Of a DNA stretch of 64,000 bases, positions 6,980-55,209 are shown piece after piece. Numbering within the stretch: position 1 is the stretch's first letter; each line of letters begins with the position of its first letter. Under the pieces are notes generated by a model. The model ran no database searches. It was given only the letters and a program-made list of their open reading frames with translations, and was not told where the DNA came from. The DNA comes from an uncultured Pseudomonadales bacterium (GTDB lineage: Bacteria; Patescibacteriota; Microgenomatia; UBA1400; UBA12028), in assembly GCA_964509365.1 (NCBI GenBank), contig CAZDWN010000001.1, positions 11,074-75,073 on the forward strand. Reading direction: 5' to 3'. The position numbers were made by a program, and so were the translations under genes.

Positions 6980-7058
6980 CGTTGAGCCAGTATAGCAGAT
7001 GAATTATGTGATGGGAAAAAAACTTGCTATCGATATATATTTGTGAGAAATTCTACGT

Positions 7059-10200: not shown

Positions 10201-11718
10201 TTACACTTCAAATTTTTTCTTCACGTAGGTGATGAAGCTTTCAGCAGACACGTGTTTACCCGTGAGCTTAAGTGACACTTCGCCCGAGGTGGACATCGCG
10301 CCACCAGCATGGACTTTGTCTCCGAGCCACGTGCGAATGATATCGAACTTGCCATTTCGCACATCATCATCAAAATCTGGATGCTCTTTGTGCAAAGTCT
10401 CTGAAAGTTGGACGGAGAGGAAACTCCCAAGTGAGTACGTCGGGAAATATCCGATCAATCCTTGGGACCAGTGAATATCCTGCAAGACTCCAAGCAAATC
10501 ATCGGGTACATCGACATCCAGATACTGTTTGTAGAGTGCATTCCATGCGTCACGAAGATCTTTGACTGCCAGCGTCCCTTCGATCATGCGCTGCTCCAGC
10601 TGCGCGCGGATCGCGATATGCAGATGATAGGTGACTTCATCAGCATCGACACGAATGAGGCTTGGTCTGATCACATTGACCTCGGCCCAAGCTTGGTGTG
10701 CCGTAGTACCCGCTAACTGTGTAGGGAATGCAGTCTGTAATACCGGGAAGAAATACTCCCAGAACTGTGGCGATTTGCCGATGATATTTTCAAAAAAACG
10801 AGATTGCGATTCGTGGATCACGAGTGAGTCTGCCATCCCGAGACGAGTACGCGCAATCTCAGGCGCGATGCCTTGCTCGTACATCCCGTGGCCACCTTCG
10901 TGAATCGACGAGAGGATGGTCGAGAGCGGATTGTCAGTGATGACGCGTGTCGTGAGACGCACATCACTGGTGGCGACTCCCATCGTAAATGGATGCGTCG
11001 AGATATCTTGTCGCCCAGCTTCCAGATCAAAGCCGAGCTCCGCAAGCAATGTCATCGTCACACTCCACAGCGTCTTCTCATCAAACTCTTGGTGAAAAAC
11101 TTTCTTGTCCCAGGTGCTCGTCTTCGCGCGTAGACTTTTGATCAGAGGAGTGAGGTGAACGATGAGATCTTCAAAGATCGCATCGACATGCTTGGCGCGA
11201 AGATCACGCTCATACTCTTCAAGCAATGCATCGTACGGGGAATCCGTAAACCCATAGGCGTAGGCAACTTCTTTTTTGAGCTCGACCATGCGCGTCAAGG
11301 CAGGGACAAATACCTCAAACTTGTTTTGATTTCTGGCGTGCTTCCATTCTTCCAGTCCTACTGATGATTGTTTACTGATCGCGGAGACGAGGCTGCTAGG
11401 TAATTTTTTTGCGAGTGTAAAGTCGCGAGTCATACACGTGATCAAGGCACGATCGTGAGCGGTAAACTGTCCAGGATTTCGCTGCAATTCTTCACTCAAT
11501 GTGGCGAGGAGCGTGCTTAGTTTTTGCGAGGTCGCTTTGCTATGGATGATCGTCGAGAGCGTCTCAAGCTGATGCGCTCGAGCCAGACCGCCTTTGTGAG
11601 GAAGATACGTCTCTTGATCCCACGCGAGAAGACCCGAGATTGACGAGAGATCTCGCATCATCTCACTGTAGGTGACAAGGTCGTTTATTTTTGGATTTGA
11701 TCGAGTGAAGACCGACAT
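10201..11718 (-). CDS. Carboxypeptidase Taq-like metallopeptidase, family M32
   Basis: HEGGH zinc motif plus M32 signatures HESQSRFFEN and IHWSQGLIGYFPTYSLGS. Confidence 0.85.
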   Translation of the reverse strand: MSVFTRSNPKINDLVTYSEMMRDLSSISGLLAWDQETYLPHKGGLARAHQLETLSTIIHSKATSQKLSTLLATLSEELQRNPGQFTAHDRALITCMTRDFTLAKKLPSSLVSAISKQSSVGLEEWKHARNQNKFEVFVPALTRMVELKKEVAYAYGFTDSPYDALLEEYERDLRAKHVDAIFEDLIVHLTPLIKSLRAKTSTWDKKVFHQEFDEKTLWSVTMTLLAELGFDLEAGRQDISTHPFTMGVATSDVRLTTRVITDNPLSTILSSIHEGGHGMYEQGIAPEIARTRLGMADSLVIHESQSRFFENIIGKSPQFWEYFFPVLQTAFPTQLAGTTAHQAWAEVNVIRPSLIRVDADEVTYHLHIAIRAQLEQRMIEGTLAVKDLRDAWNALYKQYLDVDVPDDLLGVLQDIHWSQGLIGYFPTYSLGSFLSVQLSETLHKEHPDFDDDVRNGKFDIIRTWLGDKVHAGGAMSTSGEVSLKLTGKHVSAESFITYVKKKFEV

Positions 11719-24287: not shown

Positions 24288-24944
24288 ATGATTCCCACCT
24301 TTAGAAATGACGCCTTGCTCCAAAATGCCCTCGTGCATCGTAGTGCTCTCAATGAACTGCACGGGTCTGTCTCCAATGAACGATTGGAATTTTTGGGCGA
24401 TGCAGTCCTTGAGCTCGTGACTACCGTATTTCTCTACGAGCGATTCCCAGGAGAGCAGGAAGGTGTCCTTACCAGTTACCGCGCTGCTCTGGTGAAGACG
24501 ACGACACTCGCGGTCGTAGCCAAAGAGCTGGGACTGGATCATTTACTCAAGATGAGTAAAGGGGAAGAGCGATCTGGAGGACGCGACAATATCGGCATGC
24601 TGGCTGATACTTTTGAAGCGGTCGTGGGTGCTCTGTACCTGGATCAAGGATACGACGCTGCACAGCAGTTTATCGAGACCTCACTGTTTCCGAAAGTGGA
24701 CGAGATCGTCTCCTCAAAACTCTACAAAGACTACAAAACCAATCTGCAAGAACTTGTGCAATCGCAAGGAAAATCCACTCCTGAGTACCGCACAATGGAA
24801 GAATCGGGCCCGGATCACCTCAAGGTGTTTACGGTCGAAGTGTTCGTGGATGGAGCTTCACTCGGATCAGGAAATGGAAAAAGCAAACAAGACGCGTCAC
24901 AGGAAGCTGCCAGAGTCGCTCTTGAGAAGATGGCGAACTTCTGA
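24288..24944 (+). CDS. rnc: Ribonuclease III
   Basis: Signature ERLEFLGDAVLEL. C-terminal dsRBD. Confidence 0.9.
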   Translation: MIPTFRNDALLQNALVHRSALNELHGSVSNERLEFLGDAVLELVTTVFLYERFPGEQEGVLTSYRAALVKTTTLAVVAKELGLDHLLKMSKGEERSGGRDNIGMLADTFEAVVGALYLDQGYDAAQQFIETSLFPKVDEIVSSKLYKDYKTNLQELVQSQGKSTPEYRTMEESGPDHLKVFTVEVFVDGASLGSGNGKSKQDASQEAARVALEKMANF

Positions 24945-28857: not shown

Positions 28858-29430
28858 TCAGTTGTTCCGGAGCGTGATCGAAGCACTAAAGGGGATGGAG
28901 ACTTTGTCTCGTGCACTTCCAGCCGCATTTTTTTCAAGTGTAAAACTCATCGTGACGATGGGAGGTGAACCGTCCCAACCACTCTGGCCATACGTACTTG
29001 GACTGCACGAAAACTGTAAAGTCCCAGTCGATGGGATCGTCAGATCTGTGGGCGCCATATCGGAATCAGTTCCATTGATTGTTGCTTCGAGTTTCCCGGC
29101 TTTCGTCCAGTAGCTGGTGATCGTGCCATCTTGGTTTTCGACAGAGATCGACTTCATGTTGGAATTGCAGATAGCTGACGGAGTATCTTTGTTCGCGACG
29201 ATTTTGCGAGCATTGCGGATGGTAAACGTCATTTGGCTGAGGATTTGGCCACCAGCTTGTTTGGCGTACTCACCAGAAGCAGTTTTGCCTCCGCCGACAA
29301 ACGTCGTAAAAAAAAGTGACACTGCGGTCAGGAGCAAAATTGCTGCCAGTCCGATCACGACGACCAGTTCAATTAACGTGTATCCATTGTTTTTTTTGGA
29401 ATTTGGATTTTGGATTTTGGATTTTTTCAT
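28858..29430 (-). CDS. Prepilin-type N-terminal cleavage/methylation domain protein (minor pilin)
   Basis: Class III signal peptide NNGYTLIELVVVIGLAAILL. Confidence 0.75.
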   Translation of the reverse strand: MKKSKIQNPNSKKNNGYTLIELVVVIGLAAILLLTAVSLFFTTFVGGGKTASGEYAKQAGGQILSQMTFTIRNARKIVANKDTPSAICNSNMKSISVENQDGTITSYWTKAGKLEATINGTDSDMAPTDLTIPSTGTLQFSCSPSTYGQSGWDGSPPIVTMSFTLEKNAAGSARDKVSIPFSASITLRNN

Positions 29431-33707: not shown

Positions 33708-34907
33708 TTAGAACTGATTGGTCAAATTATATATTGGCATGATGATCGCAATGATCAAAAACCCGACCCCAAGTCCTAATACGATCATGATAAGAGGTTC
33801 CAGAGCGGTCGTCAATCCTTTGACGGCGTGCTCGGACTCTGACTCGAAGTAACTCGACAGTTTGAGGAGGACCTCATCCATCTTTCCTGTCTCTTCACCG
33901 ACGGAGATCATCTGCGACATCAGGACAGGGAACTCCTGACGGTGTGCGACACTGGATGCCAAGGTCTGACCTTTTTCCACTTCCTTATATATTTTTTGAA
34001 GAGCTTGCTTAAAGACCATGTTCTCGACCGCATCGGTCGCGATTTCTAGAGCGAGCAGTAGGGAGATACCAGCACTGACGAGCAGAGAGAGCGTACGCGT
34101 GAGCTCGACGAGCGTCGTCTTTGCGCGAATATCTCCAAAGACCGGCATCTTGAGCAGGAGTTCATCGATCTTCAGTCTGCCTTGCGGAGTCTTGTAGTAC
34201 GCACGCACTCCCAAGAATATACCGACGGCACCGATGACAAAGACGTACCAAAATTGCGACATGATATTGGACATCCCGATGAGGATCTTGGTAGGTCCAG
34301 GTAATTCTGCGCCAAAATCTTTATACATTGATGTCATCTTTGGCACGACAAACACCATCATGATAAAACCGACGACGACCATCGCGGTGAGCACGATCGC
34401 AGGGTAGACGAGCGCGCCTTTGGTTTTCGCTGAGAATTCTTTTTCTTTTTCGAGGGTATCTGCGAGACGATTGAGGACTTTCTCCAAGACACCAGCAGAC
34501 TCACCCGCTTTGATGAGCGCAATGTAGACGTCACTAAACGGTGGTTGATGTTTTTCGATCGCTTTGGCGAGCGTCGATCCACCTTCGACATCACGTCTGA
34601 CTGCTTCGATCACTTTTTGCATCGATGGTTTCGCCTGCACCATGAGGATGCCAAGAGCTTCAGTCAATGGAAGTCCAGCGGTGATCATCGTCGAGAGCTG
34701 GCGCGTGAAGTTCACCACATCTGTTGAGGAGATATTGGAGAACTGCAGCATGTTCGTGAGACTGCGATCTTTATATTGCGTCAGGGAGATGACAAAGAGT
34801 CCGCGCTCACGCAAGATCACGCTCGCGTCCTTGATGCTTTGCGCTTCGACTTTACCGGTAACCGCTTCGTTTTTCTGCGTGCGGGCTTTGTAAGAATAAG
34901 TAAGCAT
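33708..34907 (-). CDS. pilC: Type IV pilus assembly platform protein PilC (GspF family)
   Basis: Two GspF repeats, three TM segments, ~400 aa. Confidence 0.85.
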   Translation of the reverse strand: MLTYSYKARTQKNEAVTGKVEAQSIKDASVILRERGLFVISLTQYKDRSLTNMLQFSNISSTDVVNFTRQLSTMITAGLPLTEALGILMVQAKPSMQKVIEAVRRDVEGGSTLAKAIEKHQPPFSDVYIALIKAGESAGVLEKVLNRLADTLEKEKEFSAKTKGALVYPAIVLTAMVVVGFIMMVFVVPKMTSMYKDFGAELPGPTKILIGMSNIMSQFWYVFVIGAVGIFLGVRAYYKTPQGRLKIDELLLKMPVFGDIRAKTTLVELTRTLSLLVSAGISLLLALEIATDAVENMVFKQALQKIYKEVEKGQTLASSVAHRQEFPVLMSQMISVGEETGKMDEVLLKLSSYFESESEHAVKGLTTALEPLIMIVLGLGVGFLIIAIIMPIYNLTNQF

Positions 34908-34993
34908 ACATAGGTGTAGAAAGTAGTATGTAGCGAGTAGTAAGGGTTTTTGTATTTCTTCCTTGCTACTTTCTACTTACTGCTTACTACTTT
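34908..34993. repeat. Heptanucleotide (GTAGNNN)n inverted-arm repeat element, pilC-pilT intergenic
   Basis: gtagaaa gtagtat gtagcga gtagtaa ... ctacttt ctactta ctgctta ctac. A purine-rich arm is followed by its pyrimidine-rich complement. Confidence 0.6.
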
Positions 34994-36076
34994 TCACCGC
35001 TTTACTAAGCGAGCTAATTGGTCTGGCCACTGAGCGACAGCTTCTGCATCTTGATACGAGATTTGACCTTGGTTCACGAGTTTGGCGAGACTGGCTTCCA
35101 GTGAGATCATGCCCATGTCTGAAGATGTTGAGATCACGTTGTCCAGCTGGAACGTTTTTCCTTCACGCACGATATTGCGGACAGCTCCATTTGCGAGCAG
35201 GACTTCGACAGCCGGGATGCGATCATCTTGCAAGGTATGCATCAATCGTTGTGAGACGACAGCTTGGAGCGTGTTCGCAAGCTGCATTCTGACTTGACCT
35301 TGCTGATGCTCTGGGAAGACGTCGATGATACGATCAATGGTTTGTGATGCAGAGTTGGTGTGGAGTGTGGCAAAGACGAGGTGTCCCGTCTCCGCGACAG
35401 TGAGTGCGGCTGCGATCGTCTCGTAGTCTCGCATCTCGCCGACGAGCACGACATCTGGATCCTCGCGCAGTGCAGATTTGAGGGCGACTTCCCAGGAGTG
35501 CGTATCCGCATGCAGTTCACGCTGTGAGATGATACTTTTCTTGCGCGTGTAAATAAACTCGATTGGATCCTCGATGGTGAGGATGTGTTCACCACGATTG
35601 GTGTTGATCTCGTCGATGATCGCGGCGAGGGACGATGATTTACCTTGACCTGTTGGGCCAGTAAAGAGGATAAAGCCTTGCTTCATCGTCGTGAATTGGT
35701 GGAGGATCGGAGGCAATCGCAATTCCTCGATCGTACGGATCTTTGCAGGGATGAGACGCAGAGCAGCTGCAAGCGTCCCTTTGTGGTAGTAGGCGTTGAC
35801 GCGGAATCTACCAATGTCTTTAAACTGAAATGAAAAGTCGACTTCTTTATTGACAAGCAATTGATCCTTAAATTCTTGCGTGAGCAGACCGAAGATCAAT
35901 GTTTGGGAGTGAGCGGCATCGAGGACATCTTCTCCTTCGATCGGCACCAGCTGGCCATTCACGCGCAGACAGGGTGGGGAACCGACGATCAAATGCAAAT
36001 CAGACGCACCTTGCGTGGCACACAGTGAAAGCATCTCTTCAATAGTCATAGCGTTTCCTTTATATCCATTGCTCAT
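34994..36076 (-). CDS. pilT: Twitching motility retraction ATPase PilT
   Basis: ASDLHL N-terminal motif, Walker A GPTGQGKSS, ~360 aa PilT size. Confidence 0.85.
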   Translation of the reverse strand: MSNGYKGNAMTIEEMLSLCATQGASDLHLIVGSPPCLRVNGQLVPIEGEDVLDAAHSQTLIFGLLTQEFKDQLLVNKEVDFSFQFKDIGRFRVNAYYHKGTLAAALRLIPAKIRTIEELRLPPILHQFTTMKQGFILFTGPTGQGKSSSLAAIIDEINTNRGEHILTIEDPIEFIYTRKKSIISQRELHADTHSWEVALKSALREDPDVVLVGEMRDYETIAAALTVAETGHLVFATLHTNSASQTIDRIIDVFPEHQQGQVRMQLANTLQAVVSQRLMHTLQDDRIPAVEVLLANGAVRNIVREGKTFQLDNVISTSSDMGMISLEASLAKLVNQGQISYQDAEAVAQWPDQLARLVKR

Positions 36077-36159
36077 TTAATACTTACACATATTCCTGTC
36101 AGTGTACAGTTGCTAGAGAAGTAGTAAGCAAACTACATACTACTTACTGCTTGCTACTT
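36077..36159. repeat. Heptanucleotide inverted-arm repeat element, pilT-pilB intergenic
   Basis: agaagtagtaagcaaa ... ctacata ctactta ctgcttg ctacttc. Same family as 34908-34993. Confidence 0.6.
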
Positions 36160-37953
36160 CTAAACCTGCGCCACACGCAAGACTTCTTCGATTGTCGTGA
36201 TCCCATCGAGCGCTTTGAGATACCCGTCTTGTTTCATGAGCATCATGCCGTCTTCCAGCCCTTGTTTCTCGATATCGTTAGCGGTCTGATGTTCCAGCAC
36301 GAGTCGTGCGATCTTGTCATTCATGGTGATGACCTCAAAGATACCGATACGACCAGAATATCCCGTATCATCATTGGATTTTGATTTGACACCTCGATAC
36401 AGCTTCATTGGTTTACCATCCATTCCTTTTGATTTGGCCCACCCATCATAGAGCGCTCCTAGCACAGTGCGGATATCTTTTTCGACCGCAGGCTCTGGAG
36501 TGTATTCTTCTTTTTCATCTGCGATTTTTCGCACGACACGTTGTGCCATGACGAGCGTGATGGATGATGCAAGCAAGAATGGTTCCATTCCCATATCGAG
36601 GAGACGAGGGAGTGCACCGGCGGCGGAGTTCGTGTGCAACGTTGAGAAGACGAGGTGACCCGTGAGAGATGCTTGCACCGCAAGTTCCGCAGTCTCGCTA
36701 TCACGGATTTCTCCCACCATGATGATATTTGGATCTTGGCGCAAAAAAGATCGGAGTCCTGATGCAAATGTCAGTCCGGCTTGCGGGTTGATTTGGACTT
36801 GGTTGATACCTTCCATTTGATACTCGACAGGATCTTCGAGTGTCATGATGTTCACTTTTGGTGAGTTGATCTTATGGAGGAGCGAGTAGAGCGTCGATGT
36901 TTTTCCTGACCCCGTTGGACCAGTGACCAGGACAATTCCGTGAGGGACGTTTGAGGCAGTCTCGAGCCTGGTAAGGGCAGTACCTCGCAGTCCCAGTTCA
37001 GACAAAGTAGGGATTGCACCGGATTTTTTCAACAAACGCATGACGATCTTCTCGCCGTGCACCGTCGGCAGCGTCGAGATACGCAAATCGACTTCATCGG
37101 CTTGTGTACGAAAGGTAAAGCGACCGTCTTGTGGCACACGTTTCTCATCGATCTTCAAATCAGAGAGGATCTTAATACGAGAGACGAGTGCTGGATGGAC
37201 ACTTTTGGGGAGCACGAGTTTTTCCGTCAAGATACCGTCGATACGATAGCGGACGCGTGTCCTGGTCTCGAGTGGTTCGATATGGACGTCAGACGCGCGA
37301 GACTTGACGGCAAACGCGAGGATGGTCTCGACGATTTTGGCGATTGGCGCTTCGCGAATGATCTCATTACTATTGGCTTGGCTGATATCGATCTCGACTC
37401 CACTCGCTACGAGTGTTTGGCCTTGATCCGTTTCTTTGAGTGCCGCAGTGACTTCACTCGTCAGACTCTGCGCGTACCGTTCACTGATCGCTCGATCGAC
37501 TTCATACTCCGAGCCGATACTGACGATCACTTTGCGACCCGTTTTTTTCTGTACGAAGTCCAAAGCAAGCAAGTCACTCGGATTGATCATCGCGATCGAC
37601 ACTGAGTGATCTTCATCATTGAGGGCATAGGGGATCAGTCTGTAGCGTCGCGCCACACTTTCGGGGATGATGGAGAGCGCTTGCGGCGCTATCCCCGTCT
37701 CAGAGAGTTTGACGTAGGGGACGTTGTACGCTTTCGCTTTCGCTTGTGTGAGGACTTCTTCGTTGACGAGATTTTTATCTTTGATCAGTTCATCGATCGT
37801 TTTATTGGAGTTGATGTGCTCAAGTGCGAGATCATCATATTGCGCTTGGGTGATATTTCCTTGGGTGAGGAGGATCTGCGCAGCGTTCGTCGCGGTAAAA
37901 CCGACGTTTGAGAATTGCGATGAATCAGTAGCTTGTGACTGGGCAGAGTCCAT
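36160..37953 (-). CDS. pilB: Type IV pilus assembly ATPase PilB (GspE family)
   Basis: Walker A GPTGSGKTST. GspE N-terminal domain. ~600 aa. Confidence 0.9.
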   Translation of the reverse strand: MDSAQSQATDSSQFSNVGFTATNAAQILLTQGNITQAQYDDLALEHINSNKTIDELIKDKNLVNEEVLTQAKAKAYNVPYVKLSETGIAPQALSIIPESVARRYRLIPYALNDEDHSVSIAMINPSDLLALDFVQKKTGRKVIVSIGSEYEVDRAISERYAQSLTSEVTAALKETDQGQTLVASGVEIDISQANSNEIIREAPIAKIVETILAFAVKSRASDVHIEPLETRTRVRYRIDGILTEKLVLPKSVHPALVSRIKILSDLKIDEKRVPQDGRFTFRTQADEVDLRISTLPTVHGEKIVMRLLKKSGAIPTLSELGLRGTALTRLETASNVPHGIVLVTGPTGSGKTSTLYSLLHKINSPKVNIMTLEDPVEYQMEGINQVQINPQAGLTFASGLRSFLRQDPNIIMVGEIRDSETAELAVQASLTGHLVFSTLHTNSAAGALPRLLDMGMEPFLLASSITLVMAQRVVRKIADEKEEYTPEPAVEKDIRTVLGALYDGWAKSKGMDGKPMKLYRGVKSKSNDDTGYSGRIGIFEVITMNDKIARLVLEHQTANDIEKQGLEDGMMLMKQDGYLKALDGITTIEEVLRVAQV

Positions 37954-43387: not shown

Positions 43388-46063
43388 ATGGCAGATACCA
43401 CCGAAAAACCATCCGAAGAAGCAGAGATCACCCCAGTCGTGGTCGACCCGACAGCCGATTATTCGACCAGATTTGGGACGATTCGTCCGACCTCGATCAT
43501 CACTGAGATGCAAAAGTCATATCTTGACTACGCCATGAGTGTGATCGTCGCTCGTGCACTTCCGGATGTCCGCGATGGGTTAAAGCCGGTGCATCGCCGT
43601 ATTTTGTTTGCCATGAAGGAAATGGGCATCCGCTGGAACACTCCATACAAGAAGTCTGCTCGTATCGTCGGAGAAGTCTTGGGTAAGTATCACCCACATG
43701 GTGATGCTCCAGTATACGAAGCAATGGTTCGTTTGGCGCAAGATTTCTCCATGCGCTATCCACTCGTGGATGGTCAGGGAAACTACGGAAGTATAGACGG
43801 CGATTCCGCAGCCGCCATGCGTTACACCGAAGCGCGTATGGCCAAGATCAGTGAAGAGCTGCTGGCTGATTTGGAAAAAGAAACAGTCTCGTTTGTCGAT
43901 AACTTTGACGGATCTTTACAAGAGCCGAGTGTCTTACCAGGAAAACTTCCAAACCTCTTATTGATGGGATCAGAAGGTATCGCTGTCGGTATGGCGACCA
44001 AGATCCCTCCACACAACTTGACTGAAGTCTGTAATGCCATTCTCAAAGTAATTGAAATGGGAGAGGCAAAACAAGAGATAAGAGACAAGAGACAAGAGAC
44101 AGAAGAATTGAATGTCGAGACCGGTGAAGCCAAACTCATCGCTGGACACTTTGACTCCGAAGCCACGATAGACGATATTTGTGAATTCGTCCAAGGTCCA
44201 GACTTCCCGACAGCGGGCACCATCTATGATTTCAAAGAGATCAAAGAAGCGTACGCGACTGGTCGCGGTCGTATCTTGATCCGAGGCAAAGCTGAGATCG
44301 TCGAAAATAAAAATGGAAAATTCCAGATCATTGTCACCGAGTTGCCATATCAGGTCAATAAAGCCAAACTGGTCGCCAAGATTGCACAATTGGCCAGAGA
44401 CAAAAAGTTGGTAGGGATTGCGGATCTTCGTGATGAGTCAGACCGCGACGGTATGCGCATCGCCTTTGATCTGAAGAAAGATGCTCGTCCAAAGTCAGTG
44501 CTCAACGCGCTCTACAAGATGACCGAGCTGCAGACGACGTTCCCGATGAATACGGTGGCGATCAACTCCGAAGGTACGCCACAGCTCATGAACGTCAAGA
44601 CGATCATGATGGAATACATTCGTCATCGTCAGACGGTGGTCGTGAAGCGAGCGCAATTTGACCTCAAAGCCGCTCGAGCGCGAGCGCATATCCTCGAAGG
44701 ATTGCTCATTGCTCTTTCAAACTTGGATGCCGTCATCAAGACCATTCGCGAATCCAAAGATTCTGACGAAGCAAAGAAGAACTTGATGGAACGATTCAAA
44801 CTTTCAGAGATCCAGTCAGTAGCCATCCTCGATATGCAGCTACGAAAGCTTGCAGCACTTGAGCGATTGAAGATCGAAGAAGAGTACAAAGCACTCATGA
44901 AGTTCATCGAAGAATTATTGACACTTTTGAAGAGTCCAAAGAAAATCTTGGAGACGATTGGCACCGAAGTGAAGCAAATGATCGAGACGCATGGCGATGC
45001 CCGTCGGACCAAAGTCCACAAAGGCAAGCTTGGAGAGATCAATGAAGAAGATTTGATCCCAAATGAACCGACGATCATCACCGTCACCGAGACTGGATAT
45101 ATCAAGCGACTCAATCCATCTGCATATCGCACCCAGCATCGCGGAGGCAAGGGCGTCAGTGGAATGACGACAAAAGATGAAGATGCAGTTTCAGAACTCC
45201 TGACTTGTGATACGCATGATAGTTTGCTGTTGTTTACCAATAAAGGTCGCGTGTTTAAGAACAAAGTCTATGAATTGCCAGAGTCTTCACGCATAGCCAA
45301 AGGGCAAGCGATCGTGAACTTGGTGAACTTGACTGCCGATGAGCACATCCAAGCGATCTTGACACTTAATGAGAAGAGTCCAGCAGGCAAATACATTTGT
45401 CTTGCGACTCTCAAAGGGATGATCAAGAAGACCCCACTTGCGGACTTCTCAAATATCCGTACCTCAGGCATCATCGCCATCATTTTGAAAGATAATGACG
45501 AGTTAGTCTTTGGTCGCATCACCACTGGTGAAGATCACATCATGATCGTAACCAACGAAGGCAAGTCGATCCGCTTCCACGAAAAAGAAGTAAAGAGTAG
45601 TAATCGCGATACTCAAGGAGTGAAGGGCGTCGAACTCAAAGGAACTGACTATGTCGTCGGCGTCGAGAGTTTCCCACCAGAACTGGCGATCCCTGAAGAC
45701 AAACGTAAGAAATTCTTCCGCCATGTCTTGGTCGTCACTGAAAAAGGAATGGGCAAGCAAACTGAGTTGACTGAGTATCCACTGCAAAAGCGAGCGGGCT
45801 TAGGAGTCAAAGTGAGTGAGATTGCTGACAAGACTGGGAAAGTTGCCTGTGCTAAGATCGTCGACGAGACAATTGATGATGTCGTTTTGACTACAAAATC
45901 AGCGCAAGTGATTAAGTTGCCACTTCGGAACATTCCTGTACTCAAACGTCCGACTCAAGGAGTGATCTTGATGCGCCTCGACAAGGGTGATTTGATTACT
46001 GCCTGCGCGACGACCAAAAAGCCAGTTGAGGAAGAAATTGCGGAAGGCAGTCTGGAAGTTTAG
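43388..46063 (+). CDS. gyrA: DNA gyrase subunit A
   Basis: [25 protein letters not shown] with active-site Tyr region. C-terminal beta-pinwheel repeats. Confidence 0.95.
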
Positions 46064-48237: not shown

Positions 48238-49176
48238 CTACTTCCCATGAAACTTCTCATGCACGCGCTTGAGGTCTGCGCGAGTGACGTGGGTGTAGAT
48301 TTGCGTCGTCGCGATATTTTTATGCCCCAAGAGCTCCTGCACATCGCGAAGTCCCGCTCCATTGTGCAAGAGATCCGTCGCAAAACTATGGCGCAGCCCA
48401 TGAGGAGTGACTTTCGTCGTGAGCTTTGCGGCCTTCACATATTTCTCGACAATGCGTTGGATCGTCCGTGAAGTGAGTCGCATCGAGTCTCCATCCATAT
48501 CATGAGAGTCGTCTCGATTGAGATGAATAAATAGCGGTTTGTAATCGTCAGTCCGACTGACGATGTAGGTGTCGATAAAATTTGCCGCCGTCTCCGAAAG
48601 AAAGACCACTCGTGTGCGTCGACCTTTGCCGATGATTGCAAACTCTCGTCGCTTGGTATCGACTTGATCTCGATCAAGTGACACCAGTTCACTGACACGG
48701 AGTCCCGTACTAAAGAGCATCTCGAGGATAGCTCGATCACGGATGCCGATTGGAGTGGACAGTAACGGCTGATTCATCAAACGTTCGAGTGAAGATTCAT
48801 CGAGAAACTTCATCGAGATGCCTTCACCCTTGGGTAAATCAATTTTTTCAGGAGCCAATACTTTTTTATCCATCCGTGTCAGCCACTTTAAAAACGATCG
48901 CAGGGCAATGACATGGTAGCCTTGTGTCTTTCGCGTCAGCTCTTTTCCTCTGATGTCGCAAAATCTCGCAAGGTACAAACGGTACTGGCGGACGTCTTCA
49001 ATTGTTAATTCTTCGATTTTTTCCTTGCCAGTGTCCGCAAACCAATCTGCAAACCTCGAGAGATAGTGGCGATAATTGCGGATTGTCAGACGAGAGAGAT
49101 TGCGTTCGACCTCCATGTGTTCCAAAAACTGAATGATTTCGGTGTGGAGGGGAGTGAGGATGGTATTTGCTTTCAT
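48238..49176 (-). CDS. Tyrosine recombinase XerC/XerD family
   Basis: Core-binding N-domain. C-terminal HGLRHSFATDLLHNGAGLRDVQELLGHKNIATTQIYTHV (R..HxxR..Y catalytic residues). Confidence 0.8.
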   Translation of the reverse strand: MKANTILTPLHTEIIQFLEHMEVERNLSRLTIRNYRHYLSRFADWFADTGKEKIEELTIEDVRQYRLYLARFCDIRGKELTRKTQGYHVIALRSFLKWLTRMDKKVLAPEKIDLPKGEGISMKFLDESSLERLMNQPLLSTPIGIRDRAILEMLFSTGLRVSELVSLDRDQVDTKRREFAIIGKGRRTRVVFLSETAANFIDTYIVSRTDDYKPLFIHLNRDDSHDMDGDSMRLTSRTIQRIVEKYVKAAKLTTKVTPHGLRHSFATDLLHNGAGLRDVQELLGHKNIATTQIYTHVTRADLKRVHEKFHGK

Positions 49177-49417
49177 ATCAAGTGCACGTCCTATAGAATA
49201 AGGCTCTGGGAGTTAGCAAAGGGGAGTGCTCGTCTGCTAGTACCCAACTATCTGCTTCTGTCGCGATGTATCCGCACAAATGAACGCTCTTTCTTGAGGT
49301 GTCTTGAGGTGAATCAAAACTCGTTTATCTCGAGTCCTCCAGATACAGATATAATAAGTAAATAATAACGCGAAAGGATGCTACCACTTATTTTATTGTG
49401 CGACACCAATCAGTCTA

Positions 49418-49849
49418 TTGAATACCGTCGTCAGATGCAATAGGATCACCAAAAGGACCATCATGACTGAAGTCTCACAGCGAAATACCACAATTGAAGA
49501 ACTCTTCGTGCAAACCGTATTGATAAAAGAGATAAGTGACTATCTCAATATGGGAGAAAGTCAGGATCTGCCAGATGATATAAAGATCCGCATTAATAGT
49601 TGTATGGCAATCGATCTTGAACAACTGATTTCTAGGTTCACGAGACTTCTAGGCTCTCAAAAAGAACTCTCGTATGATTATCTGGAAAACAATATTGAAA
49701 ACAAATTAATCGTTGCTGCTCGCACTGACATAGCTGCCATTGACCATATTGTGTTACTCGTTGCAAAACATCTCATCGCCAAATACACAACGCCACGGCC
49801 AAATCTACCTATAAAAGATGCGCAGTTTGCTTCCATCAAAGGCTCATAA
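49418..49849 (+). CDS. hypothetical protein
   Basis: 143-aa ORF. Confidence 0.3.
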   Translation: MNTVVRCNRITKRTIMTEVSQRNTTIEELFVQTVLIKEISDYLNMGESQDLPDDIKIRINSCMAIDLEQLISRFTRLLGSQKELSYDYLENNIENKLIVAARTDIAAIDHIVLLVAKHLIAKYTTPRPNLPIKDAQFASIKGS

Positions 49850-50584
49850 ACCGGCCTCGTATACGCCTCAAAATCGGCTTCAAAAGAGGGTAGACGGCTA
49901 GTATATCCTTTGACTATTTAGGCGGATTGGAAGGGCAAATCCCTATTTTCATTTTCGTGTGAAATCTATGCAATCTATTCGGTGCGACAAAAAATGTATC
50001 AAAACGAAAAAGTGACTACAGACGGGGTTTGAGTGTAAGTTCATTCAAGCGACAGAGGAGACGATGAAACAGAAATGAAATCGCACGATGGACGATCACG
50101 AAAGACATCAGCATCACATCTATCCACTTCTCCAGCTTTCTTGATACATGTCGCAAAAGGTATATTGTGCGACATTACCGATTGAGAGATCCACGCCCTC
50201 AAAACGAGAGCCGTGTGCAGTGATCCTCTACGTCGCGCTGATCGTTTTCTTCTCTCCATTGTATGCGACAGTGTAGCTCTCTTCCATACGGTGAGCACGA
50301 TATTCCTGGCTCACCTAAGCTCGCGATTCATAGCGTATTCAGCTCACCAGAGGTCACATCTGGAAATGCACCCACTCCAGGCTAGTGCTCCATTTATCCG
50401 TGCTACCCTGTATTCACGTCTTCGGGTTTTCTTCCCAAGACCCGAACTTGCGATGTTCTTGAGTACATTCTTACTTATCCACATTTATCCTCTCGAGTGT
50501 ACGACTTATAATATTATTTCACATGTGTTACAGTTTGATATAGTTCATCCCCAATGACGTGAGACTCCCCATGTCGCTTTTTAT

Positions 50585-50650
50585 ACCACTTCCCCCCTGC
50601 TCTACCTTGCTACTTCCTACTTTCTGCTTGCTGCTTCTCGAGGAAGATCC
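50585..50650. repeat. Heptanucleotide repeat element (cttgctacttcctactttctgcttgctgcttct)
   Basis: Pyrimidine-rich arm of the GTAGNNN family. Near-identical core to the tgt insertion. Confidence 0.5.
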
Positions 50651-50705
50651 CGCATACGTAGCATTGCATGCCAGGTTGACGGGATGAACCTGCTTGCAGC
50701 CCGGT

Positions 50706-51473
50706 TCACTTCCAATTGATGAGGAATAGCAAAACCAGTGAGACGAATGCCGTCACCCAGATGTACTCTCGTAGTGTTTGCGCAAACAATCGATCGATGA
50801 TGTAGTTTTGCACGATGCCAAATCCGACGTAGACGAGCGCCGTCAAAAAGAGCGACACAGTCCAGAGGCCCACAGGCAAAAACGAAAGCGCAAAGCCTGT
50901 CTCAGCGAGAATAAACGTAAAAAAGGTGCTGATATACACGACTTTTTTGGTAATTTTCGCTTCAAGTCCAATTGACCAGGTAGCGCAAAAGACTGGTACG
51001 AATAGAGCCAGATAAATGGCTACAAAATTCAATACCGGATGAAGACGAAGTGAGAAAATAAAGTTAAACAGAAACAGTGAGAGCACAAACAGAAATACCG
51101 AGGACACTGCATGTGCCGCTCGCAAAAGTTGGATTGTTTTGATTTTGCCGAACGCAAAAATGTTTGACGAGAGATACAGCGCATACATGCCGATTCCGAA
51201 GAGCGTGATGATCGCGATGCGAGAAAAAATATTTCCTGGAAGCAAAAAATAAAACAGCGAAACCGCGAGCGCATAAAACGCTGGGAATGGCACGATGGTG
51301 AGCCATTCGACTCCATTGATCGACGGTGCGAGTGCCCACGCACTCATACTATATGTCGCCAAGAAAAACAGTCCGATGGCAAATGGACGAATATCCACAG
51401 ACACGAGTTGCGTTCCTAAGAGTCCGAGTGAAAGTAAAATTGACGAGATAATAAAACGAACGCGTTTTCTCAT
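50706..51473 (-). CDS. polytopic integral membrane protein, unknown function
   Basis: About 8 predicted TM helices. ATGA overlap with the yebC-like gene. Confidence 0.5.
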   Translation of the reverse strand: MRKRVRFIISSILLSLGLLGTQLVSVDIRPFAIGLFFLATYSMSAWALAPSINGVEWLTIVPFPAFYALAVSLFYFLLPGNIFSRIAIITLFGIGMYALYLSSNIFAFGKIKTIQLLRAAHAVSSVFLFVLSLFLFNFIFSLRLHPVLNFVAIYLALFVPVFCATWSIGLEAKITKKVVYISTFFTFILAETGFALSFLPVGLWTVSLFLTALVYVGFGIVQNYIIDRLFAQTLREYIWVTAFVSLVLLFLINWK

Positions 51474-52030
51474 ACGGTAGCATTATGCCACACGCCGTCG
51501 ACATCGTCTTGTGCTTCGATCGCTTGGATCAGATTTTCGATTTGCTCAAATTGCGTTTGCTCGACTTGGAGGGGGATCGAGACTGTATATTCTCCATCGG
51601 TGAGAGTGAAGAGATAGCTCGCGGCTCCTGGCCCTGCGAGACTTCCATTATGTTGTGAAAAAATACTGCGGATTTCTCCAGCCGTCCGCTGCTTATTGTC
51701 AGTACGGACTTGGATCAAGATCCCGACTCCATTCGGGCCATATCCTTCGTAGATGATCTCCTCCAAGCTTGCCCCGCTATCGCTCTTCCCTGCTCCTCTT
51801 TTGATCGCGCGCGCTACGTTCTCATTGGGCATGTTTACAGCCCGAGCCTTATCCATAGCGAGGCGCAGTGAGGGGTTTTCATCAGGATTCGTGATGCCAC
51901 TTTTCTTTACTGCTGAGATGATGAGTCGCGCGACGGCGGTGAACTCTTTGCTGCGTTTTTGATCTTGGACGCCTTTGCGTTTGGCGATGTTACTAGAGTG
52001 TGAGTGTCCGGACATGTTTCTAAGTAGCAA
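51470..52030 (-). CDS. yebC: YebC/PmpR-family transcriptional regulator (short, 186 aa)
   Basis: N-terminus MSGHSHSSNIAKRKG...KEFTAVARLI matches YebC (MAGHSKWANIKHRK). Shorter than the usual ~240 aa. Confidence 0.65.
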   Translation of the reverse strand: MLLRNMSGHSHSSNIAKRKGVQDQKRSKEFTAVARLIISAVKKSGITNPDENPSLRLAMDKARAVNMPNENVARAIKRGAGKSDSGASLEEIIYEGYGPNGVGILIQVRTDNKQRTAGEIRSIFSQHNGSLAGPGAASYLFTLTDGEYTVSIPLQVEQTQFEQIENLIQAIEAQDDVDGVWHNATV

Positions 52031-52110
52031 GTAGAAAGTAGAGAGCAGTAGGGGAAGACAAACTTTCCTTACTCCTTACTACATACTACTTACTACTTCC
52101 TCCTAGAATT
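52020..52110. repeat. Heptanucleotide inverted-arm repeat element
   Basis: aagtagc aagtaga aagtaga gagcagt ... tactcct tactaca tactact tactact. Confidence 0.6.
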
Positions 52111-52165
52111 ATCGAGATAAAGTAACCATTCAGCCCTATTTTAACACAATGCCCTACTCCCCACC

Positions 52166-52957
52166 TTGACAACCCCTGTACAATTCTCGTACGCTTCAAT
52201 TCATGAAAATGTTTCGAAAGATATTCGTATGACCAATGTGCAACTTTTTACAAACCAATCAATTCAGGCCGCTGCGACTGGCGACTGGACGACTGCCAAG
52301 TCGACCAATGAGCAGATTCTAGAGATCGAACCAAACAATATTGGAGCCCTCAATCGACTTGGGTATGCGCTCATCCAGCTCTCAAATCCGCGACTGGCAA
52401 AGCAGACCTATGAAAAAGTGCTGACGTTTGAGCGCTTCAATCCGATCGCACTCAAATACCTCCAACTTCTTAAAAGTAAGATCACTCCTCAGTCAGTTTC
52501 TGCGAGTGATGCTGGCGATTTTATCGAAGAGCCTGGAAAAACTCGTTCCACAGGACTTCAGAAATTGGCTGACCCAGCCGTGCTTCAAAGCATCTCGACA
52601 GCGACGAAATGCGCACTCGTGGTAAAAAATCATCGGGTCAATGTGATCACCGCCGGTAACAATACCTATCTTGGTTGTCTTTCCGATGATCTCGCATTTA
52701 GACTTCAGAAGATGATCGCTGCTGGCAATGAGTATTCTGTTTTCGTCCAATCGACGACCAAGAAATCCTGCCAAGTGTTCCTCAAAGAAATTGTTCACAA
52801 TCCCGCCAGCCCGTTTGCCACTTCATTCCCACTCAACACGCAAGCACGTGGAGCTCACCAAGAAGATGTGATGATCGATGAAGCTCCGCTTGATGTTCGC
52901 GAGACAGGTGACGAGGTTGAGACCTCCGATGCTGAAGAGCCAGATCCAATGGAATAA
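52166..52957 (+). CDS. TPR-repeat protein
   Basis: TPR-like N-terminus (EQILEIEPNNIGALNRLGYALIQLSNPRLAKQTYEKVL). Acidic C-terminus. Confidence 0.4.
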   Translation: MTTPVQFSYASIHENVSKDIRMTNVQLFTNQSIQAAATGDWTTAKSTNEQILEIEPNNIGALNRLGYALIQLSNPRLAKQTYEKVLTFERFNPIALKYLQLLKSKITPQSVSASDAGDFIEEPGKTRSTGLQKLADPAVLQSISTATKCALVVKNHRVNVITAGNNTYLGCLSDDLAFRLQKMIAAGNEYSVFVQSTTKKSCQVFLKEIVHNPASPFATSFPLNTQARGAHQEDVMIDEAPLDVRETGDEVETSDAEEPDPME

Positions 52958-53970: not shown

Positions 53971-55209
53971 CTAGTCACTAACCACTAGGGACTTTCTCAT
54001 CTGCTCGCACAATCTGATCATAAATCTCACGTTGTGGATACTAGCGAGTCGGTAGTACGAGAGTTCTTTGGTCTTGGCAAGATGGTGGAGATACCCACGA
54101 CTGTATCCATGTGTGCAGGTGTAGCAGTCACAACCCTCCTGGATCACTGACGTATCTGTCTCGAATCGCTTATTCCCAATCAGTAATCTGTTTTTGGAAA
54201 ATTCTGAATTCAGCTTCCACTCTCCACTCTCCACTCGCAACTCGCAACTATACAAGGCTCCATTCCGTGCCAGACGCGTGGGCGCGACGCAGTCAAACAT
54301 GTCAAATCCATACGAGATCGCATCGATAATATCTTGTGGATTACTCCCAAGTCCCATCGCATACCGAGGTTTGTCTTGTGGAAGGAGACTTTCGATCCAA
54401 CTCATCACTTCCCCGGTACCTTGCATGTTGTATCCGATGGTCTCGCCACCGATAGCGACGCCGTCAAATCCCATGCCGCTGATCACTCTGGCAGACTCTT
54501 CACGCATCGACCGATGGAGTGCACCTTGCACGATCCCAAATAGCGCTTGGTAGTTTCCCTGGCTCGACGACTTCCCTGCTCGCTCCCATTCTTCTTTGCT
54601 TTGCCGGCTCCATCGATGGGTGCGATCGAGCGCTTGACGGGCATACGTTTCGTCAGCTCCGTCTGGAGTACATTCATCAAATGCCATGATGATATCTGCG
54701 CCGATGTCTCGTTGGATTTGGATGGATTTTTCAGGAGTAAAAAAATGTTTTGTCCCATCAAGATGTGAAGTGAACTCCACGCCTTCGTCAGTGATCTTCG
54801 CCGGAGCCATCGATTGAATTGTATTCTTGCTACTTGCTGCTTGCTGCTTACTACTCAGTTGCTTCCCAAGCGAAAAAACTTGGAATCCTCCACTGTCCGT
54901 GAGCACCGGCCGATCCCATTTCATCATTGTTTGCACTCCTCCGAGCTCATTGACGATCTTCTCCCCAGGTCGAAGATACAGATGATACGTGTTTGCAAGC
55001 ATGATCGGAGCGCCAGTGGCTTTCACGTCATCCGCATCGAGCGCTTTGACACTTGCCTGCGTCCCGACCGGCATGAAGATCGGAGTCGGCACATCACCGT
55101 GCGGAGTATGCATGACCCCAGCGCGGGCTTTACCCTGAGCCTGCCGAAGGGCCTTATTTTTTGTAGCTACCAGTTCAAAAGAAAAAGCATTCATTCCTGT
55201 ATTGTACAA
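53971..55209 (-). CDS. tgt: Queuine tRNA-ribosyltransferase (tRNA-guanine transglycosylase) with in-frame low-complexity insertion
   Basis: TIM-barrel Tgt motifs (VMHTPHGDVPTPIFMPVGT, LANTYHLYLRPG, DCVAPTR). C-terminal zinc site CDCYTCTH. 412 aa against the usual ~375. Inserted SSKQQAASSKN is encoded by heptad repeats. Confidence 0.85.
   Translation of the reverse strand: MYNTGMNAFSFELVATKNKALRQAQGKARAGVMHTPHGDVPTPIFMPVGTQASVKALDADDVKATGAPIMLANTYHLYLRPGEKIVNELGGVQTMMKWDRPVLTDSGGFQVFSLGKQLSSKQQAASSKNTIQSMAPAKITDEGVEFTSHLDGTKHFFTPEKSIQIQRDIGADIIMAFDECTPDGADETYARQALDRTHRWSRQSKEEWERAGKSSSQGNYQALFGIVQGALHRSMREESARVISGMGFDGVAIGGETIGYNMQGTGEVMSWIESLLPQDKPRYAMGLGSNPQDIIDAISYGFDMFDCVAPTRLARNGALYSCELRVESGEWKLNSEFSKNRLLIGNKRFETDTSVIQEGCDCYTCTHGYSRGYLHHLAKTKELSYYRLASIHNVRFMIRLCEQMRKSLVVSD

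Follow-up and report, generated by a model that had tools for sequence, protein, structure and literature searches.

Within 64 kb of genome from a Microgenomates-type member of the Patescibacteria (the whole stretch of DNA analysed here, referred to as the window), we found a dispersed family of purine-rich heptameric repeats of the form (R)AAGYAGN, made up of seven arms at five sites. The family itself is real. As to its nature, we consider it probable that it is a module of some 33 nt, in which (R-A-A-G-Y-A-G)x4 precedes YAAGG, and which was amplified recently in this genome, was spread by copy-and-insert, and belongs with the dispersed heptamer families of Xanthomonas, the Nostocales (short tandemly repeated repetitive sequences, STRR) and the Beggiatoaceae. 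Judged by its likeness to those families, it would be a further example of them and no new type of element. Most probably the repeat inserts selfishly or neutrally and affects mRNA structure only incidentally.

The original prediction had described heptad arms in two intergenic regions and had united them with copies beside pilT and an insertion in tgt as one dispersed family. The heptads were present at both regions with the sequence described, at 50605-50639 and 52018-52108. Region 52020-52110 holds a complete inverted pair that folds: the + strand reads AAGTAGC AAGTAGA AAGTAGA GAGCAGT at 52022-52048 and CCTTACT CCTTACT ACATACT ACTTACT ACTTCCTCC at 52067-52103, the latter being an imperfect complement of the former. 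Region 50585-50650 holds one arm, which on the + strand is the single pyrimidine arm CCTTGCTACTTCCTACTTTCTGCTTGCTGCTTCTC at 50605-50639. Heptads were also located at 34908-34993, 36117-36159 and 54826-54856, completing the five sites.

To evaluate the census against chance, the pattern GYAG-N3-GYAG-N3-GYAG was scanned with at most one mismatch, using 100 dinucleotide shuffles as the null. Seventeen matches were found in the window against 1.04 ± 1.06 expected, and a count of 17 was reached in 0 of 100 shuffles. Fifteen of these matches lie inside the five loci (34916-34990, 36133-36157, 50610-50634, 52024-52103 and 54830-54854), and the other two, at 4613 and 30515 with one mismatch each, are background. 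Period-7 arrays were reported independently by Tandem Repeats Finder (TRF) at 34962, 36132, 52022, 52068 and 54826. Only two to three copies are paired and relatives have no homologous hairpins, which left nothing to covary; in place of a covariance model, a profile hidden Markov model (HMM) was therefore built from the seven arms. On the window it recovered all seven arms with E values of 2e-7 to 9e-6, followed by a gap to the next match at E=1.5. The identical scan of 1.34 Mb in 84 other bacterial tgt loci, including three syntenic relatives, returned no array of three or more units. The family was thus borne out.

The seven arms share length, register and unit-specific features. Read in purine orientation, each contains four GYAG units in a common register, with RAA before and YAAGG after them; the 5' arm at yebC carries two additional GGAG units. 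Four of the five sense arms have GCAG as unit 2, and three arms end in the unit GTAG-C-AAG. Because of this fixed length and common internal unit order, the sequences suggest that the arms were copied from a single module about 33 nt long and did not expand separately.

The features concerned are collected in the table below. Four of the five loci are intergenic: two begin 0 nt past a stop codon and two finish 2-9 nt before a start codon, while the fifth lies inside tgt. Elements occupy both junctions of the pil operon, pilB-pilT and pilT-pilC, where the pilB and pilT stop codons adjoin the first heptad without a gap and the pilC start codon stands 9 nt beyond the hairpin foot of the pilT-pilC element. 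The yebC element lies in the 215-nt divergent region 52016-52230, between the yebC ATG (52015, minus strand) and the ATG of a gene for a TPR protein (52231), with 2 nt between its hairpin foot and the start codon of yebC. On the sense strand it runs from a 5' purine arm at 52068-52106 (GGAGG-AAGTAGT-AAGTAGT-ATGTAGT-AAGGAGT-AAGG on the minus strand) through a loop to a 3' pyrimidine arm at 52022-52052. In both inverted pairs (52018-52108 and 34908-34993) the arms are 13-16 nt apart. The solo arm at 50605-50639 is found 66 nt past the stop of a gene for a DUF5656-like protein and about 45 nt before a conserved promoter-like block, and in the tgt copy the in-frame unit is CAG instead of TAG. At all five loci the purine (R)AAGYAGN version is on the sense strand of the neighbouring genes.

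Coordinates of the repeat copies and of the genes and arrays discussed with them (positions in the window)
Feature	Position	Strand	Basis or detail
Full inverted pair, yebC 5' leader	52018..52108	-	Fold and pattern scan; absent from L083 and L082 leaders
Solo arm downstream of DUF5656-like gene	50605..50639	-	AAGCAGC AAGCAGA AAGTAGG AAGTAGC AAGG
Full inverted pair, entire pilT-stop to pilC-start spacer	34908..34993	-	5' purine arm 34961-34993, 3' arm 34914-34946
Four-unit purine arm (36129-36159) with 13-nt complementary stub (36117-36129)	36117..36159	-	Directly after pilB stop TAG 36160-36162
Solo arm within tgt coding sequence, in frame (SSKQQAASSK)	54826..54856	-	Length-variable surface linker
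yebC/TACO1-family gene, hairpin in leader	51470..52015	-	Pfam TACO1_YebC_N 9e-25, Transcrip_reg 2e-24
DUF5656-like membrane protein gene	50706..51473	-	Weak Pfam DUF5656 match; syntenic in L081, L082 and L083
pilB	36160-37953	-	Pfam T2SSE/MshEN; operon 33708..37953
pilT	34994-36049	-	Pfam T2SSE; start revised to 36049 from 351-amino-acid homologues
pilC	33708-34907	-	Pfam T2SSF
tgt, queuine tRNA-ribosyltransferase	53971..55194	-	Pfam TGT 2e-127; carries in-frame copy
RNase III gene (context only)	24288..24944	+	Pfam Ribonucleas_3_3 1.5e-37, dsrm 1.8e-16
(AAAATCC)x4 heptad array, prepilin leader	29394..29425	-	Gene 28858-29430; 30-nt in-frame insertion

RNA folding separated the paired copies from the solo ones. 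The yebC-leader element gave a minimum free energy of -35.6 kcal/mol (z=-4.10; of 200 shuffles, 0 folded equally well) and the pilT-pilC element -24.8 kcal/mol (z=-4.75), while the pilB-pilT copy formed a weak hairpin (z=-1.4). By the same folding no structure was obtained for the solo arms at 50605-50639 (z=-0.42) and in tgt (z=+1.84).

The copies are recent insertions, as judged by alignment with related genomes. The relatives used were Logan ERR2985262 (locus L081; Tgt 83% identical to the window Tgt), GCA_964492495.1 (L082 and L196; Tgt 75%), GCA_964638785.1 (L083 and L192; Tgt 75% and PilT 95%) and GCA_040006915.1 (L194; PilT 87%); the window Tgt is 100% identical to a protein encoded on an NCBI contig, and the annotation of its relatives names Patescibacteria, Woesebacteria, Cerribacteria and groups of that kind. 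In these closest available relatives the AAGYAGN element is absent at all five orthologous sites. The pilT/pilC junction, 86 nt long in the window, is TGA-T-ATG with a spacer of 1 nt in L192 and L194, and the pilB/pilT spacer measures 110 nt in the window versus 36-46 nt in the same two loci. The Tgt linker reads KQLADKKAGDMKPAKI in L081 and KQLSSKQQAASSKNTIQSMAPAKI in the window, where the extra 24 nt are in-frame heptads; it is 8 amino acids shorter and non-repetitive in both L081 and L083. Downstream of the DUF5656-like gene, the array of about 31 nt is missing from L081, L083 and L082, the flank being CTTGAG/GTGGAGCAGGGGGG in L081 compared with CTCGAG, the array and GTAGAGCAGGGGGG in the window. 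Finally, yebC in L083 and L082 starts about 20-30 nt past a conserved TAAAAT box and has no hairpin. The junctions are clean and insertion-like at pilT/pilC and downstream of the DUF5656-like gene, and no proto-repeat was found at the empty sites of the relatives (TGAtATG; CTTGAG/GTGGAG).

The description of the family as specific to this genome stood in one sense: it is amplified in the window and missing from the nearest relatives available as well as from the 1.34 Mb of comparison loci, but heptad arrays of the same sequence do exist in IMG/VR and in metagenomes. In IMG/VR, AAGYAGN x3.4 was present in 106 stretches against about 0.2 by chance (a hand calculation that assumes a collection of about 60 Gb). 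Arrays between co-directional open reading frames (ORFs), as far as the crude ORF calls on these viral loci allow, were sense in 24 cases versus antisense in 9 (p=0.014), 18 of the 24 sense arrays began within 20 nt of the upstream stop, and five inverted pairs were seen. A stricter 29-nt version was found in 49 metagenome stretches; many of the metagenome matches belong to long microsatellites whose contigs are high in GC and probably eukaryotic, and several are four-unit hairpins. AAGYAGN is not special outside this genome, because composition-matched control heptads are equally common in IMG/VR, with at least 120, 70 and 118 stretches. A horizontally shared AAGYAGN element family was consequently rejected, given the frequency of the controls and the many long microsatellites among the metagenome matches. 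What is special here is the local amplification of AAGYAGN.

Two observations on these outside arrays deserve mention. In a Gottesmanbacteria-like contig, JGI Ga0082335_1006077 (L229:2256-2340), a full AAGYAGN hairpin lies in frame in the linker of ArgRS (...DSSKQKVVSSKGKSSDFLTTNYQLPTTS...) and is translated in the SSKQ frame, as is the window copy in tgt; close ArgRS homologues carry other heptad-hairpin-derived peptides at that insertion site (SNLKHQAPNKH...NLEFVWNLELGAWNL). These sequences suggest that in-frame palindromic heptad insertions may be common in proteins of the Patescibacteria, in the manner of Rickettsia palindromic elements (RPE). In several phage contigs (IMG/VR L091, L098, L110, L126 and others), (AAAGCAG)3-4 fills the stop-to-start spacer with no other Shine-Dalgarno sequence. 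AAAGCAG is one base from AAAGGAG, and a possible role of these arrays as ribosome-binding sites, or an origin from them, may be read from the sequence.

Dispersed heptamer repeat families have been known in cyanobacteria since 1990 and were later described in Xanthomonas and the Beggiatoaceae; the cyanobacterial STRR heptanucleotide repeats are reportedly due to Mazel and colleagues in 1990. We placed the AAGYAGN family among them because its features match those of the Xanthomonas/Nostoc and Beggiatoaceae families point by point. The GGGAATC repeats of Xanthomonas and the GGGGA(T/C)T repeats of Nostoc (Rehm et al. 2015, PMC4692102, where Calothrix heptanucleotides are also cited) have a modal length of four units, include 70 inverted-pair cases among 186 repeat patterns, are about 90% intergenic with some 28 nt between them and the upstream ORF, and vary between close relatives. 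The window family has in common with them a 7-nt unit with one dominant heptamer, unlinked dispersed sites, arrays of about four units, convergent stem-loop pairs, a mostly intergenic position near an upstream stop between co-directional genes, an intragenic minority, variation between relatives, and no mobilising gene known. It differs in its host, a small-genome member of the Patescibacteria, and in its sense bias (5/5, compared with about 50/50 in Xanthomonas). Unlike the Xanthomonas heptamer, AAGYAGN is purine-rich, without G-tracts and without G-quadruplex (G4) potential, and for this reason the explanation put forward for Xanthomonas, of four units as the minimal G4, is inapplicable here.

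The TAACTGA direct repeats of marine Beggiatoaceae, which also occur in some Cyanobacteria and Bacteroidetes (MacGregor 2015, PMC4679880), are similar in other respects. They too show genome-specific amplification (in sets of 2-6 units), strong sense orientation and short spacers beside start or stop codons, often with no canonical ribosome-binding site, and stop codons in their forward orientation restrict insertion into coding sequence (PMC4679880). Inverted pairs, by contrast, were only 1 in 170 there, compared with hairpins at two to three of the five loci here, and the Beggiatoa sets typically stop about 1 nt short of a start codon, whereas the window copies abut the upstream stop and only the paired forms reach a start. 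Tolerance of a repeat in frame in essential genes, at a surface or linker position and in a reduced genome (the tgt linker, and the ArgRS linker of L229), recalls the RPE. These are said to have been described by Ogata and colleagues in 2000 as selfish palindromic DNA in frame within protein-coding genes. RPE are also mentioned in PMC1779305. Unlike the window copies, most of which are intergenic, RPE are 100-150 bp long, of unrelated sequence and devoid of heptads. All the heptamer-family features that were tested were found in the window: 7-nt arrays, amplification, about four units, intergenic bias, inverted pairs and a presence that differs between relatives.

The mode of spread most compatible with these data would be the copying and insertion of pre-formed arrays, as opposed to slippage in place or classical transposition with target-site duplication. 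Candidate agents would be templated insertion associated with replication or repair, or a trans-acting enzyme. Selection would then filter sites and orientation: in coding sequence, only the SSKQ frame and orientation with CAG at the in-frame unit would survive. The copies do lie at the few sites where a compact genome puts up with added DNA, namely directly 3' of stops, in an intercistronic spacer, in a 5' leader, in a 3' flank and in a variable protein linker. Effects on expression would be by-products. Paired copies would place a long hairpin in the mRNA, which may hold the stop of pilT near the start of pilC, or the leader of yebC near its AUG, and the RNase III encoded at 24288-24944 in the window could plausibly cleave such hairpins.

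Several points weigh against this interpretation. Copy-and-insert is deduced from presence and absence relative to genomes whose proteins have diverged by at least 5-25%, and the flank alignment downstream of the DUF5656-like gene is ambiguous in part. The window yielded no mobilising enzyme, target-site duplication or defined termini. The unit-specific features of the arms could in part be explained by the small alphabet of a degenerate heptad, and the T-C-T-T unit order also arises by chance in long GYAGCAA arrays of metagenomes. The 5/5 sense orientation corresponds only to p of about 0.03-0.06 and is confounded, all sites being among minus-strand genes. Copy number and distribution are extrapolated from 64 kb of genome, and the selfish or neutral status is a default position. 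Two additional proposals were considered and abandoned. Copying of arms together with flanks (tgt AAGAATACAA resembling the pilT-pilC loop, and GTAGAGCAGGGGGGAAG resembling the end of the yebC arm) was discarded since the matches are too short and of low complexity, and a role as a universal stop pad, with TAG in three frames, was discarded given GCAG in most arrays elsewhere and in unit 2 here.

The original prediction had alternatively offered a shared regulatory module, and the corresponding alternative is a cis-acting RNA element. Here, the Y-A-G-N4 repeats would be bound by an oligomeric protein (S1, CsrA, Csp or one like HutP or TRAP) or aid translation initiation or standby, and the pairs would form hairpins for RNase III processing or for stability, by which pil, yebC and other genes are coordinated. 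Such a role would accord with the purine strand being sense at five of five sites and with the presence of the RNase III gene. The repeats also resemble HutP sites in the Bacillus hut leader, which consist of XAG-N4 repeats with three XAG per protein surface, as in (UUUAGUU)3 (PMC2425495): at least three (U/C)AG triplets occur there at an exact 7-nt period, as do four YAG on the sense strand here at all five loci. In contrast to HutP sites, the window copies lack a further XAG site on the same strand past a linker of 12-17 nt, the second arm being the complement (CUR), no terminator was found on them and no HutP was found in the window, and they sit at five unrelated host sites, one of them in coding sequence. 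Pfam was run on most, but not all, window ORFs of at least 70 amino acids, and among those scanned no HutP, TRAP or CsrA domain was found.

Signals for translation were considered in the same context. The yebC arm contains the Shine-Dalgarno-like GGAGG and AAGGAG, and its foot is close to an AUG with no nearby Shine-Dalgarno sequence; the phage AAAGCAG arrays often end 3-17 nt before starts that have no other ribosome-binding site, and TAACTGA does likewise in Beggiatoaceae. A split Shine-Dalgarno sequence for yebC, with GGAGG at the hairpin foot, was nevertheless rejected and retained solely within the regulatory alternative, as yebC is without a Shine-Dalgarno sequence in the hairpin-less relatives too. 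Likewise, the antisense RNA folds equally well or better (-35.8 kcal/mol for pilT-pilC, compared with -24.8 for the sense strand), and the mismatches lack the G-U pattern expected under selection on the sense RNA. There is thus no sign of selection on sense-strand RNA structure, and this candidate was set aside; covarying homologues are also lacking. In the whole window, an Rfam scan at gathering score returned only tRNA-Leu, and at E<=10 over 49100-52300 the yebC hairpin gave only sub-threshold miRNA-precursor look-alikes, for example at 24.7 bits against a gathering score of 86. No terminator-like site was detected on any element, the stems being A/U-rich with no T-run, and no sigma-70-like promoter overlapped any element. 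Moreover, the genes flanking the copies are functionally unrelated (pilB, pilT and pilC, yebC, the tgt coding sequence and a 3' flank), and the orthologous genes of relatives work without the element. With no promoter or terminator consensus and with antisense folding as good, the claim of a shared regulatory module found no support, and an RNA module of this kind appears unlikely to us.

The element sites also receive other inserts. At both pil junctions GCA_964492495.1 carries an unrelated repeat of the TAGTAGATTAG type, and its TAGTAGATTAGTAAGACTAGTGGGATTAG repeat family is found at three sites, namely both pil junctions and L082:4336. In GCA_964492495.1 the two variable Tgt loops contain (AAAATCC)n heptads, one of them where the window has AAGYAGN, and in L081 a different long palindrome (GTCATTCCTACGAAGGCAGGAATC ... 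GAATCCTTGCCTGCGCAAGGATGAC) lies directly 5' of the yebC ATG. Because relatives carry different inserts at these positions, the element sites are evidently the few places where a gene-dense genome tolerates added DNA. Further repeats were noted in the same relatives. Those dispersed in GCA_964492495.1 are located at L082:4336-4741 and 11208-11480 and at L196:5836-6000 and 6985-7055, and include a longer shared element (GAGGGATCC...TCGATCATTNGTCGAGA...GGGCAGGCAGGATGACA) with (CAGAGGA)n heptads on its flanks. The TPR-yebC region of L081 (13515-13600 and 13690-13775) contains a CTCAGTG/ACTGAGT heptad inverted repeat and a palindrome of the GTCATTCC...GGAATGAC type, both unlike the window hairpin although they occur in the corresponding intergenic region.

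A propensity for period 7 extends beyond AAGYAGN. Counting TRF arrays of at least 2.8 copies, period 7 reached 172/Mb in the window and about 240/Mb in GCA_964492495.1, compared with 22/Mb in the background of 80 other loci, which is an enrichment of about 8-fold here; three other relatives had 0-1 such arrays per locus, and periods 6, 8, 9 and 12 were at background level. In the window, the prepilin leader with its heptad array belongs to a type IV pilin-like protein and reads MKKSKIQNPNSKKNNG/YTLIE, as against MKNG/YTLLE in the L194 ortholog; phase-variable contingency loci classically have this arrangement, with a 7-nt simple sequence repeat (SSR) where a pilin gene begins. An (ACAAGAG)x4.4 array lies in frame in gyrA (44071-44101; gene 43388-46063, + strand) and divides its Pfam DNA_topoisoIV match in two. 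The size of about four heptads is independent of the AAGYAGN sequence, because the AAAATCC and ACAAGAG arrays have it as well. Loop 2 of tgt (54216-54249) contains TTGCGAG x2 and GAGTGGA x3 heptads, translated as ELRVESGEWKL; its orthologues in L081 and L082 are of equal length and period-7-like, with different units, of the AATGGA and AAATCC types, and from these sequences it looks like a concerted change of a coding heptad array at constant length.

A bolder proposal would attribute all of this to a dedicated templated 'heptad-writing' process, distinct from ordinary slippage or transposition and present in this genome and in a related subset of Patescibacteria such as GCA_964492495.1, which would insert blocks of about 4 x 7 nt and inverted duplicates at permissive sites, including linkers of Tgt, ArgRS, GyrA and the prepilin leader. 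We regard it as speculative and rather unlikely. If true, the process would generate intercistronic RNA hairpins and new hydrophilic protein linkers, and it would bear on how the heptamer families of Xanthomonas, Nostoc and Beggiatoa spread. The patchy period-7 enrichment among relatives could then pinpoint the responsible gene by phylogenetic profiling; since close relatives differ in this enrichment, a trans-acting cause can feasibly be searched for.

The family had also been likened to a mobile or recombinogenic repeat of the REP (repetitive extragenic palindromic) or MITE (miniature inverted-repeat transposable element) type. The first part of this comparison was sustained, in that the copies are inserted DNA at five sites, while the features that define REP and MITE elements were not observed. 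In the corresponding alternative, a non-autonomous transposon would be mobilised by a REP-associated tyrosine transposase (RAYT, HUH Y1) or by an insertion-sequence transposase located elsewhere, with GTAG as the tag and the inverted pairs as mobile doublets. GTAG is indeed the conserved tag of the largest REP superfamily, and REPs are likewise mostly downstream of ORFs and at times intragenic (PMC3733652); REPINs are inverted REP doublets whose singlets are decayed remnants (PMC3116915), and two to three of the five loci here are doublets. As in REP/REPIN systems (PMC3733652, PMC3116915), the window elements are short and extragenic, occur as hairpin doublets and solos, and show presence/absence polymorphism relative to related genomes. 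However, a single arm is a homopurine-rich direct repeat and not a palindrome of 20-40 bp, the solo arms neither fold nor possess the terminal inverted repeats of a MITE, and GTAG/GCAG is reiterated four times inside each arm, with no terminal unpaired tag. The five left junctions (TGA/A, GAG/A, CTG/A, TAG/A and AGG/A) have no repeated flank on the right, and they revealed no common target sequence and no consistent target-site duplication, with only an ambiguous TATG/ATGT at pilT/pilC. In the ORFs scanned within the 64 kb, neither a transposase nor a RAYT domain was detected, and heptads without GTAG (AAAATCC, ACAAGAG) make similar four-unit insertions in this genome. A REP- or MITE-type transposon is consequently quite improbable.

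Independent slipped-strand expansion in situ, by which each array would be a microsatellite or contingency locus with no copying between sites and possibly a function in pilus phase variation, would be in line with the excess of heptameric SSRs found in bacteria, which has been attributed to polymerase slippage (PMC4692102). The parity of control heptads with AAGYAGN in IMG/VR also agrees with it, as do the two elements in the pil operon and the prepilin-leader array, where shifts of +/-7 nt would change the frame. Against it, the empty sites in relatives offer no proto-repeat, and in-situ slippage therefore cannot account for the arrays. Furthermore, all seven arms are equal in length and register, with no length spectrum; one heptad at five sites in 20 kb versus none in 1.34 Mb is not independent chance; and reading-frame switching is impossible for the intergenic copies. 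We consider slippage very improbable. The last alternative, a compositional or chance artefact or a set of intrinsic terminators, could be suggested by the purine-rich, low-complexity sequence and by hairpins lying between genes, but is counted as refuted by the shuffles, the HMM (E of about 1e-6 to 1e-7, then 1.5), the terminator scan (no GC-rich stem with T-run), the promoter scan and Rfam.

Some features of the neighbouring genes were also recorded. At the N-terminus of tgt (55127-55150), the peptide ALRQAQGK is due to a 24-nt insertion, GCCCTTCGGCAGGCTCAGGGTAAA, which none of the 14 other aligned homologues has and of which the window contains one copy. The inserted peptide presumably resembles the GC-rich palindromic repeat peptides of Patescibacteria ORFs. 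On the minus strand, a region of about 700 nt without ORFs (~49850-50560) extends from the DUF5656-like gene to a XerC/D-like integrase gene (48238-49176), which is itself conserved and syntenic in relatives. This region is conserved in four genomes. Besides a promoter-like block (GTGAAATAATATTATAAGAC), it holds a hairpin of 28 nt, ATGTCGCACAATATACCTTTTGCGACAT, at 50148-50175, which is identical in L081 and L083 and with which L082 agrees from GTCGCA on. Rfam gave nothing for the region, and gene callers put a probably spurious 114-amino-acid ORF on its opposite strand in three genomes. As no Rfam family matches it, the region is a candidate for an undescribed noncoding RNA.

Returning to the AAGYAGN module as a dispersed heptamer repeat probably spread by copy-and-insert, its occurrence extends the heptamer-repeat phenomenon to a tiny, gene-dense candidate-phyla genome. 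The size of about four units in a heptad incapable of forming a G4 removes the G4 explanation of module size, and whole modules and hairpins in spacers that are as short as 1 nt and lack a proto-repeat in relatives argue for the insertion of pre-formed arrays. For annotation, such hairpins should not be taken for terminators, small RNAs or CRISPR-like arrays. In these organisms, heptad repeats supply in-frame linker sequence to essential proteins.

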